A stretch of DNA of 64,000 nucleotides. It comes from a virus (Duplodnaviria > Heunggongvirae > Uroviricota > Caudoviricetes). Both the position numbers and the translations under genes were made by a program. Position 1 is the stretch's first letter; each line of letters begins with the position of its first letter. Below the pieces are notes generated by a model that had not been told where the DNA came from, did no database searches, and worked only from the letters and a program-made list of their open reading frames with translations. The stretch covers positions 11,687 to 75,686 of the IMG/VR virus record IMGVR_UViG_3300047564_003701; one strand, 5' to 3'. Below are positions 7,646 to 53,358 of this stretch, piece by piece.

Positions 7646-8932
7646 TTAGTACCTATATGTTTCTAATTTATAAGGACCATCGACTTCAACATTAATGTAT
7701 GCAGCCTGATTAACAGTTAAATTGGTTAACGTGGCACCAATCTGATCTAAATGCAATCTGGCAACCTTCTCATCTAACTTTTTAGGAAGTAGATATAGTT
7801 TTCCAATTTCGTATTTGTCAGGATTATTGAATAAATCGATCTGTGCTAATGCTTGATTAGTAAAACTGTTACTCATAACATAGCTAGGGTGACCGGTGGC
7901 ACAACCTAGATTTACCAGTCTGCCTTTGGCTAGAACTATAATTCTTTTTCCGTCAGGAAAAATTACGTGATCGACCTGCGGTTTGATTTCATCCCATACG
8001 CAGTTTTTTAAACTAGCAATATCAATTTCACTGTCAAAATGTCCTATGTTGCACACAATAGAATTGTTTTTCATTCTAGACATATGATTGTAAGTTATGA
8101 CATCTATGTTTCCTGTGGCTGTGACAAAAATGTCTGCTTTGTCTGCTGCATACTCCATGGTCACTACTTTATAACCTTCCATAGCAGCCTGCAACGCACA
8201 GATAGGATCAACTTCTGTAATCCATACTTGGGCCGACAGAGCTCGGAGAGACTGTGCAGAACCTTTGCCTACATCTCCATAGCCACATACTACCGCTATC
8301 TTGCCTGCTATCATTACATCAGTGGCTCTCTTGATTGAGTCAACTAGACTTTCGCGGCAACCGTATAAGTTATCGAATTTTGATTTCGTTACACTATCGT
8401 TGACATTGATAGCTCTGAGATGCAGTGTTCCTTTAGAAATCCTCTCCAACAGTTTATGGATGCCGGTTGTGGTTTCTTCAGTTACGCCTATGATATCTTT
8501 TAATAAATCGGGATACTTGTCGTGTACAAAGGCTGTTAGATCGTGACCGTCGTCTAAAAGCATATTTGGTTTCCAGTTATTTGGTCCTGATATTGTTTGT
8601 TCTATACACCACCAATATTCTTCTTCGGTCTCGCCTTTCCAAGCGAATACTGGAATACCTTTAGAAGCCAATGCTGCCGCTGCATGATCTTGTGTTGAAA
8701 AGATATTACAACTAGACCATCTTACCTCTGCTCCTAAATCTATAAGAGTTTCTATTAGAACAGCAGTCTGCACAGTCATATGTAGACTACCTGCGATTCT
8801 TGCTCCCTTTAGAGGAAACTTATTTTTATATTCTTTTTTAATCGCCATTAATCCGGGCATTTCTGTTTCGGCGATCGCTATTTCTTTTCTTCCCCAGTCA
8901 GCTAACTGTATGTCTGCGATTTTATAATCCAT
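7646..8932 (-). CDS. ahcY: S-adenosyl-L-homocysteine hydrolase
   Basis: Full-length match to AhcY, including [30 protein letters not shown] and the NAD-binding [15 protein letters not shown]. Confidence 0.9.
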
Positions 8933-8933
8933 T

Positions 8934-9473
8934 TTATTCCTTATTCAAATCTTGCATAATTTTTATTGCCCATTCAAAGGCTACACGAGCTTCGTCACCT
9001 AAGTCATCTGTTAGCTCTGCACGTATCTGTTCCTTGAGTTTTTCTGGATCTTTAAACTTGTAAAAACGTCCTTGTCCAGGTACACGTTTGGCAATCATTT
9101 GGCCGCCATATAGATCTCCCATATGACGACAATAAAGATGTGCCTTGATAAGATGTTTTCTTTCTGGGTCATTGATCAGTTCTAACAGATAATTATGGTA
9201 TCCGATAGTAGACGGTAACCATTTAAAATCGTGATCTTTTCCAGCTAGTTCGATAAAATCTTGATAGATCGGCCAGGTCCTTTCAATGTCCGGGAGGCTG
9301 GCAAAATTACCTAGTATTTTGTTACCCATTTCGATAGGTTGATAAACCAAAACCATTTGCCATAGGTAGTTGGCGTAGTCCTCTTTAGATATAGATCCGC
9401 TTAAAAGTTTTTTAGCAAACTCTGTACGTTCTGCATCTGAATGTAAATCTTTAGTTATTTCTCGTAAGCTCAT
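8934..9473 (-). CDS. ho1: heme oxygenase
   Basis: [24 protein letters not shown]... and [22 protein letters not shown] align with the HO-1 proximal and distal helix motifs (LKEATKEVHTQAEN..., [20 protein letters not shown]). Confidence 0.75.
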
Positions 9474-9483
9474 AGTGTGTTAT

Positions 9484-9750
9484 TTACACCTTAGAAATTT
9501 TCAACATTAATAATAAGAGATCTTTTTCACTATCGAATTTAATGAAAAAGGTATTGCTATTGTTTTTTTGATACTGCCATTTGATACCTAATTTTCCAAA
9601 TGACTGTTCTATTGTTCTAATGAAATTTAATCTTCCTTGTTTTCCTAGAGTAGCTGCTGGAGTTCGATAATCTTTGATAAGTGCCCAGTGACCGAATCTT
9701 TTTGACCCTACATTCTGATAAGAAATTATTTTATAATTTTCCTGGATCAT
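9484..9750 (-). CDS. hypothetical protein
   Basis: ORF with a 4-nt ATGA overlap to the clpS start. No recognisable domain. Confidence 0.35.
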   Translation of the reverse strand: MIQENYKIISYQNVGSKRFGHWALIKDYRTPAATLGKQGRLNFIRTIEQSFGKLGIKWQYQKNNSNTFFIKFDSEKDLLLLMLKISKV

Positions 9751-10046
9751 TCTCTTTCTAAATTAATCTGTAACGGAAATCCGTTCAATCTAGAAAGTTT
9801 AGTAGATTCTACTGATTTGTGCTCAGCTATTTCGTAATTAAAAACACCTACTACAGCGGAGCCAGTGTTGTGTATTTCTAGAGTGAGATCTTTAGCAGTA
9901 TCTTCTCTATGTTTAAAAATCGAAGTTAACAACTCAATGACGAATTCCATAGGTGTTTGATCGTCATTTAAAAATACTACTTTCCATAAAGATGGAGGTT
10001 GCAGATTAACTTTAACTTTTTCTTCTGTTTTGATTTCTGTGCTCAT
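9747..10046 (-). CDS. clpS: ATP-dependent Clp protease adaptor ClpS
   Basis: PPSLWKVVFLNDDQTPMEFVIELL...HNTGSAVVGVF matches the ClpS core ([24 protein letters not shown]). Confidence 0.8.
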   Translation of the reverse strand: MSTEIKTEEKVKVNLQPPSLWKVVFLNDDQTPMEFVIELLTSIFKHREDTAKDLTLEIHNTGSAVVGVFNYEIAEHKSVESTKLSRLNGFPLQINLERE

Positions 10047-10088
10047 TAGTTGCTCCGGTAATAGTAGGGGATTTCTCCCCCACTAATA

Positions 10089-10526
10089 TTACTTAACCTC
10101 TACGATATCGATTACCTTAGGTTTGGCAGACTCTGGAATATTTCTTACCAATTTGATAGAAAGCATACCATTTTGTGTTTCTGCACCAACTACCTCAATA
10201 TATTCTGCTAAAGGAAATTCCTTAACAAAATCACGAGTAGCTAGACCTCGATGTATGTATACCATATCAGTGCTTTCATTTGATGTTTGACTTTCGCCTT
10301 TGATGATCAGCACGTTGTCTTCTACGGTTACATTGATTTCGTCTTTCTTGAAACCAGTAACAGCGATTTGAATCTCATACTGATTCTCACCAGTTTTGAG
10401 AATGTTGTGTGGGGGATAATTGTTAGAAACGCTGTTAGCGAATCGTCTTTCCATTTGGTCAAACATAGTGTCGAAACCAATAAGTGCTCTATTAATGGCG
10501 TCTAGTCTTGCTAGTTGATTGTTCAT
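10089..10526 (-). CDS. small heat-shock protein (Hsp20/alpha-crystallin family)
   Basis: IbpA/Hsp20 layout: NYPPHNI...YEIQIAVTGFKKDEINVTVEDNVLIIKGE...IHRGLATRDFVKEFPL...GMLSIKL. Confidence 0.85.
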   Translation of the reverse strand: MNNQLARLDAINRALIGFDTMFDQMERRFANSVSNNYPPHNILKTGENQYEIQIAVTGFKKDEINVTVEDNVLIIKGESQTSNESTDMVYIHRGLATRDFVKEFPLAEYIEVVGAETQNGMLSIKLVRNIPESAKPKVIDIVEVK

Positions 10527-10530
10527 AATA

Positions 10531-10569
10531 ATCTCCTTATAAAGTAAGATGAACTGGGCTCTATGCCCT
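10531..10569 (-). promoter_or_regulatory. conserved ~40-nt upstream element (copy 1, 5' of hsp20)
   Basis: 20-nt block atctccttataaagtaagat plus 14-nt block gggctctatgccct. A near-identical element lies 5' of dnaK at 12671..12710. It includes the SD AAGGAG and a GGGC..GCCC mini-hairpin. Confidence 0.45.
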
Positions 10570-10570
10570 A

Positions 10571-10762
10571 TTACTGACCCTCACCCGAGTGATCTGTAAT
10601 TCTGTTTTCTGTTTCTTGAAGAGTTTCTTCTGCTATAAGTTTAGAAACTTCTTCAATTACAGATTGTTCTTGTTTTCTAAAGACAGTATCCCAATTAGAA
10701 TCGAAAGTTTTTTTATCGACGCTATATGGACGCGGTCTACTACCTTTACCTGCCTCAGCCAT
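10571..10762 (-). CDS. hypothetical small protein
   Basis: 63-aa ORF 3 nt downstream of dnaK. It is not DnaJ or GrpE-like. Confidence 0.35.
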   Translation of the reverse strand: MAEAGKGSRPRPYSVDKKTFDSNWDTVFRKQEQSVIEEVSKLIAEETLQETENRITDHSGEGQ

Positions 10763-10764
10763 TT

Positions 10765-12666
10765 TTATTCCTTCTTTTCTGTAAACGTAGCATCTACTAC
10801 GTTATCATCGGATGGATTATTGCCGGTTGCTTCTTGAGCTGGCTGACTTTCTTTAGCCTGCTTTTTTTCTAACAGAGTTTTCATTGCCGGATAAACTTTG
10901 TTAAGTTCTTCTGTGATCTTATCTTTGTCGTCGCCCTTTGTGGCTTCTCCAACAGCATTGATAACATCCTCAAGTTGCTTAACTTCATCTTCAGTAAGTT
11001 CGCTACGATACTCTTCAAGATCTTTTTTAACTTCGTGCATCTGAGCTTCAGCTGAATTCTTAGTATCGATTAGTTCTCTAGCTTTCTTATCTGCTTCGGC
11101 ATTAATCTCAGCATCTCGAATCATTTGTTCAATTTGTTCTTTGCTTAGACCGGAATCAGACTTGATGGTGATCTTATTTTCTTTGCCTGTATTTTTATCT
11201 TTGGCAGAGATATTCATGATGCCATTGGCATCAACATCGAAAGTAACTTCGATCTGCGGAAGTCCTCTACGGGCCGGAGCAATGCCTTCTAGATTGAATT
11301 CGCCTAACAGTTTATTGTGTTGAACGAGTTCTCTTTCTCCCTGGACCACTTTGATAGTCACGGCAGGCTGATTATCTTCAGCCGTGCTGAATGTCTGACT
11401 TGCTTTGGTAGGAATCGTAGTGTTCTTTTGAACCAGTTTAGTCATTACTCCGCCTAACGTTTCGATACCTAAACTCAGAGGAGTAACGTCAAGTAACAAT
11501 ACGTCATTGCGATCGCCGCCCAACACAGCACCTTGGATAGCAGCACCAACTGCTACTGCTTCGTCTGGGTTTACATCTTTGCGTGGTGCCTTACCGAAAA
11601 GTTTCTCAACTTCTTCTTGCACTTTAGGCATACGTGTCTGACCGCCAACAAGAATAACTTCGTCAATGTCAGCAGCAGTAACACCTGCGTCTTGCATAGC
11701 GATGCGGCAAGGAGCCAGTGAACGATTAATAAGATCTTCGACCAGGCTTTCTAATTTTGCCTTTGTTAATTTTACTACTAGATGCTTAGGACCACTTGCA
11801 TCGGCTGTGATGTAAGGTAAGTTAACTTCTGTCTGTGTGCTGTTTGATAATTCAATTTTGGCTTTTTCAGCAGAGTCTTTTAAACGCTGAAGAGCTAATA
11901 CATCTTTAGTTAAATCAACGCCTTGTTCTTTCTTGAACTCCTCGACCAAGTAGTCCATAATGCGTTGATCGAAGTCTTCACCACCTAGGAATGTGTCGCC
12001 ATTCGTTGACAATACTTCAATTTGTTTGTCGCCATCTACATTCGCGATTTCAATGATCGATACATCGAAAGTACCGCCACCAAGATCGTAAACAGCAATT
12101 TTTCTGTCAGCTTTATCTTGCTTATCAACACCATAGGCCAATGCAGCCGCTGTTGGTTCGTTGATGATACGCAGAACTTCTAAACCTGCGATCTGTCCCG
12201 CATCTTTGGTTGCTTGACGTTGTTGATCGTTAAAGTAAGCAGGCACAGTGATCACTGCTTTAGTTACTTCTTGACCAAGATAATCTTCTGCGGTCTTTTT
12301 CATTTTACGAAGAACTTCTGCAGAAATCTGTGGAGGTGCCAATTCTTTGCCCTGTGCTCTAACCCATGCATCGCCGTTTTTACTTTCCATAATTTCGTAT
12401 GGCATCAGGTCGATGTCTTTTTGTACAGCCTGTTCTTTAAACTTACGTCCAATCAATCGCTTGGCTGCATAAATTGTATTTTTGGGGTTAGTGATCGACT
12501 GTCTTTTCGCCGATGCACCTACAAGGATTTCGTCGTTGGCATAGGCAACGATACTAGGTGTAGTACGAGTACCTTCTGAATTTTCAATAACTTTGGAAGT
12601 TCCATTCTCGACGATAGCCACGCAGGAATTGGTGGTGCCGAGGTCAATACCGATGATCTTAGACAT
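10765..12666 (-). CDS. dnaK: molecular chaperone DnaK (Hsp70)
   Basis: Full-length Hsp70: [23 protein letters not shown], the substrate-binding domain and a C-terminal lid. Confidence 0.95.
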
Positions 12667-12670
12667 ACAT

Positions 12671-12710
12671 ATCTCCTTATAAAGTAAGATCTATTTGGGC
12701 TCTATGCCCT
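12671..12710 (-). promoter_or_regulatory. conserved ~40-nt upstream element (copy 2, 5' of dnaK)
   Basis: Same 20-nt and 14-nt blocks as at 10531..10569, with a 6-nt instead of 5-nt spacer. Confidence 0.45.
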
Positions 12711-12744
12711 GTAAATTGCCCTATGGTACAATTTACGATTTTAT

Positions 12745-13329
12745 TTATCTCTGGTTAGCTAGCGGCATAAACAATTTACCGTTTAGCCCGGAACTAGCAG
12801 TTCTTAGAGATTTAAAAACATTCTGTACTCCTACAGCCTGATTCCACGCATCTTCTAAGGCGTGATGCTTGAGTACCGGAGGACGCTTTGGGTCTATTCC
12901 GAGATCAAATAATGTGCGGGTATCACGAACTTCCCAAAATGACCAAGGAACAGCTTTACCAATTTTACGAAATAAATTTTCGCAGATAATCACATCAAAG
13001 CCGGCACCGTGACTCCAAACACGTTTGGCGCCCCAACAGAACTTATAAAGTTGAGTCATTGCATCAACAATATCAATCCTGTTGTTAGGATCAAACGCTT
13101 CGTCTTGAGCAGCCTGACTTTGACTTGCCCACCAATCGAGTGTTGCCTGACTAACTGTACAACCTAAACGATCACAACTGTCTAGATCAACCCTAACGTA
13201 AAATTTTTCGCAGGTAGGATCTTTTAAATCATCTCCGAAAGGATCAAATTTTACTGCTCCAATAGTTAAAATAGTAGCAGTTGGGAGAACATCTAGAGTC
13301 TCCATATCAATCATTATATCTGTAAGCAT
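12745..13329 (-). CDS. DEDDh-type 3'-5' exonuclease (DnaQ/RNase T-like)
   Basis: Exo I motif MIDMETLD and a C-terminal H....D motif (WSHGAGFDV). Confidence 0.6.
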   Translation of the reverse strand: MLTDIMIDMETLDVLPTATILTIGAVKFDPFGDDLKDPTCEKFYVRVDLDSCDRLGCTVSQATLDWWASQSQAAQDEAFDPNNRIDIVDAMTQLYKFCWGAKRVWSHGAGFDVIICENLFRKIGKAVPWSFWEVRDTRTLFDLGIDPKRPPVLKHHALEDAWNQAVGVQNVFKSLRTASSGLNGKLFMPLANQR

Positions 13330-13366
13330 TATATTATTATAAATTCTTTCTATTAAGATGTCAATG

Positions 13367-14386
13367 TTATTTTACAAATATATCGTTGATCTGTCTGTTC
13401 ACACGAATAAATGTGGTACATTTGGATAATTGTTTTAGACTAGGAGCTCCGACATAGGTACAGGTACTGCGTAAACCACCTAAAAGATCTAATACAGTAT
13501 TCTGCACCGGACCTTTGTATTTTACTTCTACAGTGCGTCCTTCTGAACTACGATATTCAGCAACACCTCCACTGTGTTTATTCATAGCAGTGTCTGAACT
13601 CATTCCGTAAAATGTTACTTTGCCGTCTTTGATTTCGCCACCGCCTTCGTCGTGTCCTGACAGCATACCGCCTAGCATTACAAAGTCCGCGCCAGCGCCG
13701 AAAGCCTTAGCAACATCACCAGGGCAAACACATCCACCATCAGCAATAATATGAGCGCCAAGACCGTGAGCGGCATCGGCACACTCAATGATAGCACTAA
13801 GCTGTGGGTAGCCCACACCAGTTTGGATACGAGTAGTACAAACGCTACCAGGGCCAATGCCCACTTTAATAATATCTGCGCCACGTAAAATTAACTCCTG
13901 TGTCATATCTGCGGTAACCACATTACCGGCGATAATAGTTATGTGAGGATATGCTTGTCTAACTTTAGAAACATATTCTCCAAAATGTTCACTGTATCCG
14001 TTAGCTACATCGATACAGACGAAATGAATTTCTGGATAAGAATTTACTATCTGTCTTAGTTTAAGAAAATCTTTGTCACTGGTTCCTGTGCTGACGGCAA
14101 AATAATTTCCGCCAAACTTACCTGTTAGATCAAAAAGATCGTCTTCAGCATAGCTCTTAACCAGACAAGTAAACATCTGATGTTTATACAATTTTCGAGC
14201 CATATCTATTGTACCCACACCGTCCATATTGGAAGCCATGATAGGTACACCGGTCCATTCAAAGCCACTGTGTCTAAATTTATATGTTCTTGTAAGATCT
14301 ACTTCTTTGCGACTACTTAGAGTAGAACGCTTTGGTCTGATGAGCACATCACGGAAGTCTAGCTTGACTTCATCTTCGATACGCAT
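13367..14386 (-). CDS. guaC: GMP reductase
   Basis: N-terminus [26 protein letters not shown] is almost identical to E. coli GuaC. IMPDH/GMPR TIM-barrel motifs ([11 protein letters not shown]). Confidence 0.9.
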
Positions 14387-23243: not shown

Positions 23244-23384
23244 ATCTTCTCCTTGTGTGTGTTTGAAAACTTCAATAACTCTGTATTGTATGTGTATATT
23301 ATATATCCTATTAAAATGCAAAATCAATAGATTTTTTCTAAATATTTTTTTATGACGATCATAGGAAAAATCAATAACGAAAAG

Positions 23385-23416
23385 AAAGCGGCCCGAAGGC
23401 CGCTTTACTATTTTGG
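23385..23416. terminator. intrinsic terminator (hairpin GCGGCC-cgaa-GGCCGC with flanking T/A runs)
   Basis: On the minus strand the hairpin is followed by TTTCTTTTCGTT. Positioned at the 3' end of the tmRNA coding piece. Confidence 0.5.
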
Positions 23417-23740
23417 TTGACAAGGCATAGTTGCCCCGGAGTGGCAGTTTCTTAGGCTGCTAGAGCGAATCTACCTTCATTAGCTGCACCAACGGTGTTG
23501 CCTGTGAAGTTCAATGCGCCAAACTCAAATGTATCTGCGTTTGCATTTACGTTTTTTGCTTCTGCGACCGGGTTACTCCAATCCTACGGGTTCTGCTTTC
23601 CCGAGCTGTCCACTCTGTTACTCTTTGCCCTGTCGAAACCATGTACACCCCCAACGCAGGATACTTTTAAAATATCCTCCGGTGGAGGTGGGGAGATTCG
23701 AACTCCCGTCCAGAACACTTTTCTCTTTGCTTCATACAGC
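23405..23740 (-). ncRNA. ssrA: circularly permuted (two-piece, alphaproteobacterial-type) tmRNA, ssrA
   Basis: Minus strand, acceptor piece: T-arm GGGAG-TTCGAAT-CTCCC, then 3' acceptor strand CACCTCC, discriminator A and CC (plus 23681..23707). A short intervening hairpin follows (GGATA..TATCC). Coding piece begins GGGGGTG-TACAT-GGTTTCGACAGGG at plus 23652. Its first 7 nt pair perfectly with the 3' acceptor strand, including G3:U70. An internal frame ends GCAGCTAATGAAGGTAGATTCGCTCTAGCAGCC-TAA, i.e. AANEGRFALAA-stop (23452..23487). The terminator follows. Confidence 0.75.
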
Positions 23741-23748
23741 AATAACTT

Positions 23749-24159
23749 TTATTTAATCCAACCTATCTTTTCGCCAGCATCTTTGCGACGATCATGTTCT
23801 TCTGGAGTATTTGGATATCTCCAGGCCCAAACAGCGACCAATGCCATAAACACTGCTGTTGAAATAATACCGATAAGTTTTACCCCACCTGTCCACATTA
23901 GTATAAGGCTTAATGACATCATTGTCAACATCAAATAACGTAGTTTTTGAGGAAAAACTCTTTTTTCGCTCCAATTGGTTAAAAATGGTCCGAAAATCTT
24001 ATGATTGTAAATCCAACGATGCATACGCTCACTGCCCTTAGAAAAACAATAAGCTGAAAATACAATAAACGGGCTGTAAGGAATTCCAGGTGTGATCAAT
24101 CCGATATAGGCCAGTCCTAAACTAATAAATCCTAAAACATTCCAAAATAATTTTTTCAT
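23749..24159 (-). CDS. YbaN/DUF454-family inner membrane protein
   Basis: MKKLFWNVLGFISLGLAYIGLITPGIPYSPFIVFSAYCFSKGSERMHRW parallels E. coli YbaN. Start taken at the internal ATG at 24159. Confidence 0.6.
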   Translation of the reverse strand: MKKLFWNVLGFISLGLAYIGLITPGIPYSPFIVFSAYCFSKGSERMHRWIYNHKIFGPFLTNWSEKRVFPQKLRYLMLTMMSLSLILMWTGGVKLIGIISTAVFMALVAVWAWRYPNTPEEHDRRKDAGEKIGWIK

Positions 24160-52390: not shown

Positions 52391-52727
52391 AACGATCCTC
52401 AACATAATCCGCAGTCCCGACTTCTAAGATCACTGAATTAGGATGCAGAGCTTCGATCTGATGCGGGCTGAGCTCTGCGAAATCTGCGGTCTTACCTTCT
52501 TCTAGAATAGCTTCTTTGATTTGACCAGTGGCCACATCTATGTAAGTTACCTTGAATCTCCCGGCATTGACAAACCAGCTCTTTCTTTTTTCTTTATGGA
52601 ATACCATACTGGTTTTGGCACCTACCTTGGTAAACACCAGTAGTTTGCCGCAGTAACTTTCATTGTTACTCCATATGATTTCAAATCCCCAGCCCTTGTC
52701 TATTTTTCCTGCTTTCTGTAGGTTCAT
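52332..52727 (-). CDS. cupin-domain protein
   Basis: Small beta-barrel pattern (GWGFEIIW...GKLLVF). Its 3' end overlaps the hemA 3' end convergently by 59 nt. Confidence 0.45.
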
Positions 52728-53314
52728 GGTCTTTTCTCTATGATTTTATCTACGAGCCCGTAGTCTAATGCTTCTTGTGCTGACATAAACTTATCTCTTT
52801 CCATATCCGCAGAAAACATTGCAAATGTTTTATCTTTGCTGTTATGCTTGACATAGATCTCAGTGAGATTCTTTTTCATTTTTAAAATTTCTTCAGCCTG
52901 TATCTGAATGTCTGTGGCCTGCCCACGAGCTCCTCCGCTGGGCTGATGAATCATATGACGAGCGTTAGGCAGCATATGTCTTTTACCTGCTGCACCTGCC
53001 TGGGCTAGCAATGATCCCATAGAACAGGCCTGCCCCATTACATAGGTGGCGACATCTGGTTTGATAAACTGCATCGTATCATAGATGCTCATACCTGCTG
53101 TGACTACGCCACCTGGACTGTTTATGAACAGACTAATGTCCTTGTCTGGATTTTCACTTTCTAAAAATAACAGTTGGGCTACGACCAAATTCGCCATATA
53201 ATCTTCTATAGGGCCGTTCAACATAATTATTCTTTCTTTGAGCAGTCTACTGTAGATATCAAAAGCACGCTCGCCTTTTGATGTAGACTCAATAACCATT
53301 GGTACCAATGCCAT
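52724..53314 (-). CDS. clpP: ATP-dependent Clp protease proteolytic subunit ClpP
   Basis: Catalytic Ser (GQACSMGS), His (HQP) and Asp. Full ClpP length. Confidence 0.9.
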
Positions 53315-53358
53315 AATATTCCTTTAAGTAAAGTGTATATATTACTATAATATTTTGA

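Follow-up and report, generated by a model that had tools for sequence, protein, structure and literature searches.

A repeated structured leader of phage dnaK and hsp20 genes as a candidate bulged-A RNA thermometer of the ROSE class

Introduction

ROSE-like RNA thermometers are defined by an anti-Shine-Dalgarno (anti-SD) sequence, U(U/C)GCU, that pairs imperfectly with the Shine-Dalgarno (SD) element and leaves a bulged G between a U.G and a C-G pair (PMC3669281, PMC11342760). The type found at Pseudomonas ibpA has two hairpins only, of which hairpin I is stable and the SD hairpin thermolabile, and a stabilizing role for hairpin I was suggested by Krajewski et al. in 2013 (PMC3669281). Bacterial ROSE elements act without a protein (PMC3669281, PMC11342760). 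According to a 2024 paper, phage genomes have yielded only three RNA thermometers, and ROSE-like elements are not among them (PMC11182007). Here we analyze a 64,000-nucleotide (nt) stretch of the tailed-phage record IMGVR_UViG_3300047564_003701 (hereafter the window), in which an identical block of noncoding sequence lies directly 5' of two virus-encoded chaperone genes, hsp20 and dnaK. As proposed for the known phage thermometers, a structure in the region of the ribosome-binding site (RBS) would sense temperature; however, lambda cIII uses alternative structures, the elements of SPbeta blyA and of a gut Caudoviricetes sigma-70 gene are both of the fourU type, and none of the three is ROSE-like or resides on a virus-encoded chaperone gene (PMC11182007).

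On balance, we favor the reading in which the block is the core of a structured leader that serves as a derived, bulged-A translational thermometer of the ROSE class for phage dnaK and hsp20, with temperature as the presumed signal. The class of mechanism is known; what is new is its viral context, its extension to dnaK and groES, its coupling to a late promoter and its bulged-A form. Our survey of the literature found no description of a ROSE-like leader in a phage, before dnaK or groES, or before a cyanophage hsp20 gene, and the paper on the phage Melnitz lists hsp20 with no mention of a thermometer.

An identical block precedes hsp20 and dnaK

The two genes and the two copies of the block are located as follows. 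Coordinates are window positions, and leader sequences are read in the mRNA sense from the minus strand, which is the coding strand here.

10089..10526, minus strand: hsp20, 145 amino acids (Pfam HSP20, E=6e-18; PHROG 432, Hsp20)
10531..10550 and 10556..10569, minus strand: hsp20 copy of the block, reading AGGGCATAGAGCCC (10556..10569), AGTTC, ATCTTACTTTATAAGGAGAT (10531..10550), TATT, ATG
10765..12666, minus strand: dnaK, 633 amino acids (Pfam HSP70, E=2.7e-254)
12671..12690 and 12697..12710, minus strand: dnaK copy of the block, reading AGGGCATAGAGCCC (12697..12710), AAATAG, ATCTTACTTTATAAGGAGAT (12671..12690), ATGT, ATG

Both copies thus share the layout AGGGCATAGAGCCC, five or six nt, ATCTTACTTTATAAGGAGAT, four nt and ATG, with the leaders of both genes stopping 4 nt 5' of the start codon. 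Even when up to three mismatches are tolerated, the 20-mer ATCTTACTTTATAAGGAGAT occurs at exactly two sites in the window, against an expectation of 0.02, and none of 100 shuffled sequences reaches two. Exact matches to the 14-mer AGGGCATAGAGCCC fall at these same two sites only. The repeat is therefore real and not a product of chance. A covariance model of the whole leader (R1) was built from A-type leaders only, in which the anti-SD reads CUUACUU as it does in the window. Run with filters off, R1 finds the two leaders and nothing else in the window, with scores of 88.9 bits (E=5e-23) and 59.2 bits (E=1.5e-14). Most gene starts in the window lack a recognizable SD sequence, and those of dnaK and hsp20 carry a perfect AAGGAGAU.

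A first-pass annotation of this DNA had pointed out the shared block, advised a search for further copies and placed clpS immediately 3' of hsp20. The counts and the covariance model bear out the block and reveal no copy beyond the two leaders, and the gene calls confirm the position of clpS. The same annotation proposed a "weaker cousin" of the block before clpP (53315..53340). This candidate was rejected, as it scores 8.5 bits (E=4.8) among 15 other noise matches and has no hairpin I upstream. The broader notion of a chaperone and Clp regulon goes too far: dnaK and hsp20 carry the leader, as does groES in relatives, but clpS and clpP do not.

The block belongs to a leader with three predicted hairpins

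On alignment of related stretches, the repeated block turns out to make up the 3' two-thirds of a longer 5' leader with three predicted hairpins. Exact copies of the 20-mer occur in 57 IMG/VR stretches and, with few exceptions, stand immediately 5' of dnaK or hsp20. Leaders of dnaK follow a common order: (G/T)ATAAATA, about 5 nt, a long hairpin I, a small hairpin, a short linker, the 20-mer and the ATG. The elements of the two window leaders are listed below.

12711..12736, minus strand: dnaK hairpin I, GUAAAUUGU-A-CC AUA GG-GCAAUUUAC (RNAfold, pair counts and RNAalifold)
12697..12709, minus strand: dnaK small hairpin, GGGC-AUAGA-GCCC, inside the 14-nt block 12697..12710
12671..12690, minus strand: dnaK SD hairpin, the 20-nt box (RNAalifold consensus; minimum-energy fold of the isolated segment at 20 °C)
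12655..12661, minus strand: dnaK codons 2-4 (U AAG AUC), complementary to GAUCUUA at 12685..12691
10570..10600, minus strand: hsp20 hairpin I, AUUAC-A-GAUC-A-CUC GGGU GAG-GGUC-A-GUAAU, which aligns to hairpin I of the model
10556..10568, minus strand: hsp20 small hairpin, GGGC-AUAGA-GCCC, identical to the dnaK copy
10531..10550, minus strand: hsp20 SD hairpin, the 20-nt box, with anti-SD 10544..10548, bulged A10545 and SD GGAG 10533..10536
10521..10554, minus strand: lower stem of the hsp20 SD hairpin, GUUCAU (10549..10554) with AUGAAC (10521..10526), sequestering the start codon in the minimum-energy fold

The stem of hairpin I differs in sequence among phages and retains its pairing, G.U pairs included. 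Its apex is conserved as Y-R-CC/loop/GG-G, in which the bulged purine has a Y.G or C-G pair on one side and two C-G pairs on the other. The bulged purine is A12727 in the dnaK leader (between U12728.G12719 and C12726-G12720) and A10590 in the hsp20 leader (between C10591-G10579 and C10589-G10580). Compensatory variants of the hsp20 hairpin I are seen in relatives, for example GGUC/GAUC and AUUGAGGAU/AUCCUCAAU, and the small hairpin of dnaK leaders in relatives reads GGGCAUAGAGCCC or GAGCAUAGUGCUC. In the 20-nt box, CUU-A-CUU is predicted to face AAGGAG through the pairs C-G, U-A, U.G, bulged A, C-G, U-A and U-A. For dnaK this corresponds to C12688 U U, bulged A12685 and C12684 U U paired with AAGGAG (GGAG at 12673..12676), the bulge being flanked by U12686.G12675 and C12684-G12676; the hsp20 copy is the same.

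Several analyses bear on these structures. Sense-strand folds of the leaders are more stable than those of dinucleotide shuffles (z=-3.69 for hsp20 and -2.66 for dnaK) and of the antisense strands. Given 53 aligned A-type leaders, RNAalifold arrives independently at the three hairpins; it recovers six of the eleven pairs of hairpin I, the apical C-G pairs among them, and gives the SD hairpin as (((((.(((...)))))))) with the bulge at the A of CUUACUU. Changes on both sides of a pair are found at 10 of 11 pairs in hairpin I and at four of five in the small hairpin, whose second pair is G-C in 25 sequences and A-U in 27. The covariation score is 0.230 compared with 0.128 for shuffles (reached by none of 500), and slid controls stay at or below 0.10. 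Because G.U pairs are maintained, which would be C.A mismatches on the other strand, the structure is assigned to the sense RNA strand.

A second layer of pairing appears to connect the leader with the coding region. The 12 nt that end with the anti-SD CUU show complementarity to the start region, and changes in one segment accompany changes in the other. Among hsp20 genes, the co-varying haplotypes are ATTGTTC/GAACAAT, TTGATTC/GAATCAA, CATTC/GAATG, GTCATAA/TTATGAC and AGTCA/TGACT, with the GUUCAU/AUGAAC of the window as a sixth. Cognate leader and coding segments pair with -4.19 kcal/mol versus -2.82 for re-paired ones in hsp20, and with -3.90 versus -2.79 kcal/mol in dnaK; none of 5000 permutations reaches the cognate value in either case, although these permutation figures are inflated by shared descent. 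Six distinct complementary haplotypes are nonetheless hard to explain except by real pairing. The predicted probability that the hsp20 AUG is unpaired is 0.01-0.07 at 5-37 °C.

Covariation thus indicates that hairpin I and the small hairpin (hairpin II) are real, and from structure prediction we infer that the SD hairpin forms in vivo. Two further candidate features were set aside. The A1-U20 pair that might close the 20-mer shows no consistent covariation, as ATCTT..GAGAT, TTCTT..GAGAC, TTCTT..GAGAA and ATCTT..GAGAA all occur. A tiny out-of-frame open reading frame (ORF) over the dnaK start, AUGUAUGUCUAA (AUG UAU GUC UAA; 12664..12675, minus strand), is present only where the spacer is ATGT or ATGC, and is probably incidental.

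Kinship with ROSE elements

A relaxed search for the box, CTT[AG]CTY-N-ARGGAG, retrieves about 150 distinct leaders, every one 5' of a gene for DnaK, Hsp20 or Cpn10/GroES. A large group of these leaders is G-type, with CUUGCUU in place of CUUACUU, which yields UUGCU; UCGCU also occurs, and both conform to the ROSE signature. The few matches to Rfam families among the homologous leaders are dominated by ROSE_3 (RF02523; gathering score 43 bits), each at the predicted position. Full-length sense-strand matches that end at the start codon were obtained for G-type hsp20, groES and dnaK leaders, with scores of 33.6, 30.5, 26.0, 24.1 and 21.6 bits. Leaders of hsp20 in cultured phages score 34.1 (Melnitz) and 26.8 bits (C48C1), and those of cyanophages 27.9 (S-SKS1), 21.8 (P-RSM1), 21.6 (S-RIM44), 17.6 (syn9), 17.0 (S-RIM2) and 16.9 bits (S-SSM4). 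The ROSE_3 consensus itself shares the hairpin I apex of the phage leaders, with G as the bulged base (GAU-G-CC..GG-GUC), and its SD register agrees with theirs.

The connection can also be traced from the other side. R1 matches G-type leaders with up to 50.9 bits (E=1e-11), including one at L224:4891-4951 that ROSE_3 matches as well. Within the cultured-phage loci, the best matches of R1 are hsp20 leaders, namely those of S-RIM14 (20.7 bits, E=4e-4), S-SZBM1, Melnitz and S-SKS1. The link from the window to ROSE is therefore indirect but consistent, judging from these sequence matches. A weaker R1 match (20.5 bits; L240:1120..1191) lies in one G-type relative, 1.8 kb upstream of dnaK and 5' of a 75-amino-acid ORF (MGRYITISQEVD...) of unassigned function. 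A second covariance model, from G-type and cyanophage leaders, was abandoned, as MAFFT split the SD columns where loop lengths differ.

The window leaders also fit the class in position and form. Each lies in the 5' untranslated region (UTR) directly upstream of a heat-shock gene. Each has three predicted hairpins, the last of which contains the SD (RNAfold, RNAalifold), as the ROSE architecture requires, and the bulge opposite the SD is flanked by a U.G wobble and a C-G pair, a geometry that matches the description in PMC11342760. With ROSE_3 and the Pseudomonas ibpA type they share a stable 5' hairpin I whose bulged purine stands in the context U-R-CC..GG-G, a single-stranded linker and then a weak 3' hairpin, CU(U/C)-R-CU:AGGAG, with the pairs C-G, U-A, Y.G, bulge, C-G and U-A. 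The suggestion by the first-pass annotation of an RNA thermometer-like 5' UTR that includes the SD is accordingly sustained by covariation and by the ROSE_3 matches of homologous phage leaders.

Differences from these bacterial elements are equally clear. In the window leaders, hairpin I and the SD hairpin are separated by an additional small hairpin. The AU-rich SD hairpin of these leaders has no flanking G-C clamps, and its predicted stability is far lower than that of the ROSE_3 consensus. The AUG of the window hsp20 is occluded in the predicted fold, whereas it is unpaired in the Pseudomonas elements (PMC3669281). Finally, the window leader is viral, also stands 5' of dnaK (and of groES in relatives), and in the case of dnaK is preceded by a promoter of the T4 late type instead of a sigma-32 promoter.

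Related leaders in cultured phages

T4-like cyanophages and the phages Melnitz and C48C1 (Kyanoviridae) carry a conserved, ROSE_3-like leader with two hairpins upstream of hsp20. The cultured-phage loci that we compared (L284-L291 and L251-L254) are from syn9, S-RIM2, S-RIM14, S-SSM4, S-RIM44, S-SKS1, S-CAM1, P-RSM1, S-SZBM1, Syn19, Melnitz-3 and C48C1. By eye, ten T4-like cyanophage leaders consist of NTAAATA, a hairpin I with U-G-CC-UUCG-GG-G, a linker and ACUCGCUU-loop-AAGGAG. In this layout, NTAAATA lies about 5 nt before hairpin I, and ACU(C/U)GCUU-loop-AAGGAG is followed by the hsp20 ATG. Exceptions concern the late-type box, which reads TATATAAT in S-SZBM1 and is not visible in S-CAM1 and C48C1. 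Hairpin I of the cyanophages shows compensatory changes at three pairs, and the 81-nt leader of Syn19 is kept at 80-90% identity in 321 phage records.

The leaders of cyanophages, Melnitz and C48C1 differ from those of the window in having a bulged G with the canonical ROSE motif and two hairpins instead of three. They occur once per genome, 5' of hsp20, whereas the window lineage adds dnaK, and groES in relatives. From this distribution, the window lineage appears to have switched to A and to have placed copies before dnaK (and groES). A search for the A-type box in 185,579 bacterial and archaeal genomes gave 29 scattered matches, none before a chaperone gene or with the leader architecture and none pointing to a bacterial donor or host, and the A-type variant therefore appears to be phage-specific. 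Only one bacterial match is at a gene start (L255, a Pseudobdellovibrionaceae metagenome-assembled genome; 6317-6336, minus strand), where it follows a GC-rich hairpin. The protein encoded behind it, beginning MPKMKTKSGAKKRFK, we take to be similar to ribosomal protein L35, and this match is probably a coincidence.

This wide distribution also bears on whether the repeat could be a functionless tract, duplicated or exchanged by gene conversion between two nearby intergenic regions. The copies in the window are only 2.1 kb apart in direct orientation and seem to evolve in concert, as such an origin would predict. However, the exact 20-mer persists in 57 IMG/VR stretches despite divergence of the flanks and stems, the hairpins are maintained by compensatory changes, and the leader family reaches marine cyanophages. 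Moreover, with 76-92% identity to the window DnaK among the best 80 homologs, the carriers are not near-identical strains. We find it scarcely credible that the repeat is without function.

Proposed mechanism of temperature sensing

In the mechanism that we propose, the anti-SD CUU-A-CUU would pair with AAGGAG at low temperature and occlude the SD, while a lower stem would cover the AUG (hsp20) or the first codons. Warming would melt the weak SD hairpin and allow 30S subunits to bind. Hairpin I would stay folded and aid the folding of the labile SD hairpin; at the 5' end of the late dnaK mRNA, it would probably also stabilize or protect the message. The dnaK copy would be transcribed from its own T4-type late promoter, and the hsp20 copy would be internal to a dnaK-orf63-hsp20 transcript.

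Folding calculations are partly consistent with this scheme. When the 20-mer is held in the ROSE register, its predicted ΔG is -6.4, -4.7, -3.1 and -1.2 kcal/mol at 5, 15, 25 and 37 °C, respectively. Deletion of the bulged A in silico locks the SD, with an unpaired probability of 0.00 up to 40 °C. In relatives, predicted SD accessibility climbs with temperature, for example from 0.20 to 0.61 between 15 and 45 °C in one-hairpin hsp20 leaders. Being AU-rich and far weaker than the ROSE_3 consensus, the predicted SD hairpin of the window would suit a lower set-point, as in cold water.

A number of observations weigh against assigning the window leaders to this class of thermometer. The anti-SD is UUACU in both copies and not U(U/C)GCU, and the bulged base is A and not G, in hairpin I as well. 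A direct Rfam assignment of the window leaders was attempted and failed, with no match to any ROSE family at E<=10, 101-nt searches included, and all ROSE_3 scores of relatives (16.9-34.1 bits) fall below the gathering score. The pairs of the SD hairpin are invariant across leaders, so covariation neither supports nor refutes this hairpin. Taken alone, the SD hairpins do not exceed shuffles in stability (z=-1.27 and +0.45), and A-type leaders allow a second register, CUUU:GGAG. When the dnaK coding region is included, the minimum-energy fold pairs GAUCUUA (12685..12691) with UAAGAUC (12655..12661), that is, the anti-SD with codons 2-4, in competition with anti-SD:SD pairing. The SD then lies in a loop, with an unpaired probability of about 0.7 at all temperatures. 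Lastly, predicted melting is gradual and centered far above lake temperatures. The fourU family and other curated Rfam thermometers likewise gave no match on the window leaders.

The weakness of the SD hairpin lends some weight to a different role, in which the leader drives constitutive high expression. Hairpins at the 5' end would block 5'-end-dependent decay, and the pyrimidine-rich CUUACUUUA together with the perfect AAGGAGAU would form a strong RBS and enhancer in the manner of T7 gene 10. That leader has a 5'-terminal hairpin, the epsilon enhancer UUAACUUUA, a pyrimidine-rich ACUUUA tract just 5' of AAGGAGAUAU and the SD AAGGAG, and it belongs to a late gene; CUUACUUUAUAAGGAGAUAU of the phage leaders presumably resembles its UUAACUUUAAGAAGGAGAUAU. 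It is not known to act as a regulatory switch, and no proposal of anti-SD pairing is known for it. In agreement with such a role, hairpin I begins at the predicted +1 of the late transcript, other late-promoter-proximal regions of the window likewise start with hairpins, and folding predicts little pairing of the SD in the context of dnaK. The stabilizing role suggested for the ROSE hairpin I by Krajewski et al. (PMC3669281) would also suit it. Constitutive expression leaves unexplained, however, why anti-SD complementarity, bulge geometry and a ROSE_3-like architecture are retained, why the first codons co-vary in a way that occludes the AUG, and why the leader is restricted to chaperone genes and absent from, for example, the structural genes of the window. 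We regard this role as unlikely.

If the thermometer interpretation is correct, a ROSE-type sensor would be standard equipment on hsp20 of T4-like cyanophages, pelagiphage-like phages and methylophages, and in a large freshwater lineage, with more than 590 DnaK-bearing IMG/VR contigs, it would have been duplicated to the virus-encoded dnaK and groES genes. Temperature would then set how much of their own chaperones lytic phages make. The window variant would represent a natural G-to-A replacement of the supposedly essential bulge, in both hairpins at once, and would offer a ready test of the role of the bulged base in ROSE elements. Since carriers such as syn9, S-RIM2, S-PM2-like phages and Melnitz are in culture, the idea could be tested directly.

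Identity of the bulged base

The bulged purine of hairpin I and that of the anti-SD are almost always the same: A/A in 96 leaders, G/G in 59 and discordant in three, two of which (L224 and L250) look like parse errors. The state is common to all genes within one genome. On the DnaK tree, A defines the clade of the window and is also found in the outlying L236, while L248, nested among G-type phages, has A at three of four positions. The loop of the small hairpin shows a similar pattern within genomes, being AUAGA in both window copies and AUAGG in both copies of the closest relative.

Such coupling is what a translational operator would exhibit if the two bulged-purine hairpins formed a bipartite site for a trans-acting small RNA or RNA-binding protein, of phage or host, that exerts feedback on dnaK, groES and hsp20 by repression or activation. 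The leader would then be more than a passive thermometer. A G-to-A switch made in concert in hairpin I and the anti-SD, at two or three genes of one genome and across more than one lineage (the main A clade, L236 and partly L248), would reflect co-evolution with the factor. Nearest-neighbor energies do not distinguish A from G, and thermodynamics therefore gives no reason for the coupling. On the other hand, the coupling could stem from shared descent together with the transfer of entire leaders from gene to gene, in line with the loop sequences, the two positions are seen to uncouple in L248, bacterial ROSE elements need no protein (PMC3669281, PMC11342760), and no candidate factor was identified. 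A shared functional constraint on the two bulges could also account for the pattern. We consider a trans-acting operator unlikely and continue to favor a ROSE-class thermometer.

Transcription signals

Two promoter-like sequences on the minus strand are relevant to the expression of the leaders.

12742..12749, minus strand: T4-type late-promoter box GATAAATA, upstream of dnaK, overlapping the exonuclease stop codon (12745..12747)
13336..13364, minus strand: perfect sigma-70 consensus promoter, TTGACA-17-TATAAT (12/12 match), before the exonuclease gene

T4 late promoters carry TATAAATA at -13..-6 and are served by gp55, gp33 and the sliding clamp (PMC2988020). The box GATAAATA matches this octamer at seven of eight positions and lies 5 nt upstream of dnaK hairpin I. 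With the geometry of the T4 box (PMC2988020), the late start is predicted at G12736, where hairpin I begins, and the box would thus place this hairpin at +1 of the dnaK transcript. ATAAATA is not over-represented in the window (16 copies compared with 20.7 expected), but each of the 16 copies has the start of a same-strand ATG-initiated ORF within 90 nt downstream, versus 38% for 7-mers of the same composition. Several regions next to late boxes begin with a hairpin, for example those after 31099, 35157 and 37449.

The box lies outside the repeated block and is missing from the hsp20 copy. In relatives, NTAAATA is found in front of 76 of 77 distinct dnaK leaders, compared with eight of 62 for hsp20 and one of five for groES. 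As it is near-constant at dnaK and rare at hsp20, hsp20 is probably co-transcribed with dnaK in most cases, and we propose that in the window its leader is internal to a dnaK-orf63-hsp20 transcript. No terminator-like site was found on the minus strand between 9400 and 13500, and an intrinsic terminator was accordingly dropped as a candidate. Early read-through from the sigma-70 promoter at 13336..13364 could produce transcripts that carry both leaders. This promoter ends 6 nt 5' of the exonuclease ATG, which suggests an early exonuclease transcript that is leaderless or nearly so.

These data make it very improbable that the block functions at the DNA level, as a promoter (heat-shock sigma or phage middle/late type) or as an operator for a DNA-binding regulator. 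The identical sequence before two co-functional genes is what one would expect of such an element, and a dedicated promoter was one of the two functions considered in the first-pass annotation, which recommended comparison with the RpoH consensus. Yet the block contains the SD and stops 4 nt short of the ATG; a start site beyond it would fall in the coding region, and a transcript starting from the block could not include the RBS. Neither the length nor the sequence of the spacer to the ATG is constant, no -10 element is conserved, and the stems stay paired through G.U pairs that would be C.A mismatches on the other strand. The late-promoter box is a separate element, found upstream of dnaK only. 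Both the promoter proposal and the RpoH comparison came out negative: no sigma-70-like site was found on the minus strand at either copy, and neither the sigma-32 consensus (CTTGAA-N-CCCCAT) nor CIRCE (TTAGCACTC-N9-GAGTGCTAA) has a match anywhere in the window. None of the three was retained as the identity of the block. We also considered a middle promoter with a MotA box, since CTTGCTTA of relatives presumably resembles the T4 sequence TGCTTtA. This candidate was rejected as well, as CTTGCTTA/CTTACTTTA is followed by no conserved -10 and its start site would fall within the coding region.

Gene content and genome context

Other genes that bear on the leaders are listed here.

9747..10046, minus strand: clpS (Pfam ClpS)
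10571..10762, minus strand: 63-amino-acid ORF between dnaK and hsp20 (orf63)
12745..13329, minus strand: Rv2179c-like exonuclease
52724..53314: clpP (Pfam ClpP), far from the chaperone cluster

The 63-amino-acid ORF matches nothing in Pfam or PHROG. Its frame and an N-terminal motif, GKGSRPRPFSVDQKTFDxNWDxIF, are kept in 15 related loci, and it has an acidic tail, ITDHSGEGQ. The final nine codons and the stop codon sit within hairpin I of the hsp20 leader, and a terminating ribosome would therefore unfold that hairpin. Between the hsp20 stop and the clpS start (about 10050..10085, minus strand) is a GC-rich hairpin without a U-tract, UAGUGGGGG-AGAAAU-CCCCUACUA, which may be a processing or stability element.

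In agreement with the first-pass annotation, which noted the lack of dnaJ and grpE, DnaJ, GrpE and also GroES went undetected by tblastn in the 64-kb window with E. coli query sequences. Some relatives (L004:3124, L014, L041, L056 and L216:976) have a Cpn10/GroES gene beside dnaK with the same leader 5' of it, located between dnaK and hsp20 in L004, L014 and L056 and upstream of dnaK in L216. DnaK is encoded by more than 590 IMG/VR contigs with lengths up to 353 kb.

A megablast search of the region against 50,697 phage records gave no close match. The window Hsp20 is closest to Hsp20 proteins of Kyanoviridae, including Methylophilales phage Melnitz, and a virion protein of the window is 53% identical to proteins of T4-like cyanomyoviruses. 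The phage is thus probably related to Kyanoviridae, as far as these protein comparisons indicate. Auxiliary metabolic genes lie on both sides of the chaperone cluster (7646..9473 and 13367..14386, both minus strand); they encode S-adenosylhomocysteine hydrolase and heme oxygenase, 3' of clpS, and a GMP reductase/IMPDH-family protein.

Two-piece transfer-messenger RNAs (tmRNAs) are already known from Melnitz-like phages (PMC9004378). The window also carries a two-piece (permuted) tmRNA gene at 23361..23790 on the minus strand, which matches Rfam tmRNA_permuted with 105.5 bits and beta_tmRNA with 104.5 bits; the betaproteobacterial type may hint at the host. ARAGORN calls a permuted tmRNA at the same position, with the tag peptide ANADTFEFGALNFTGNTVGAANEGRFALAA.

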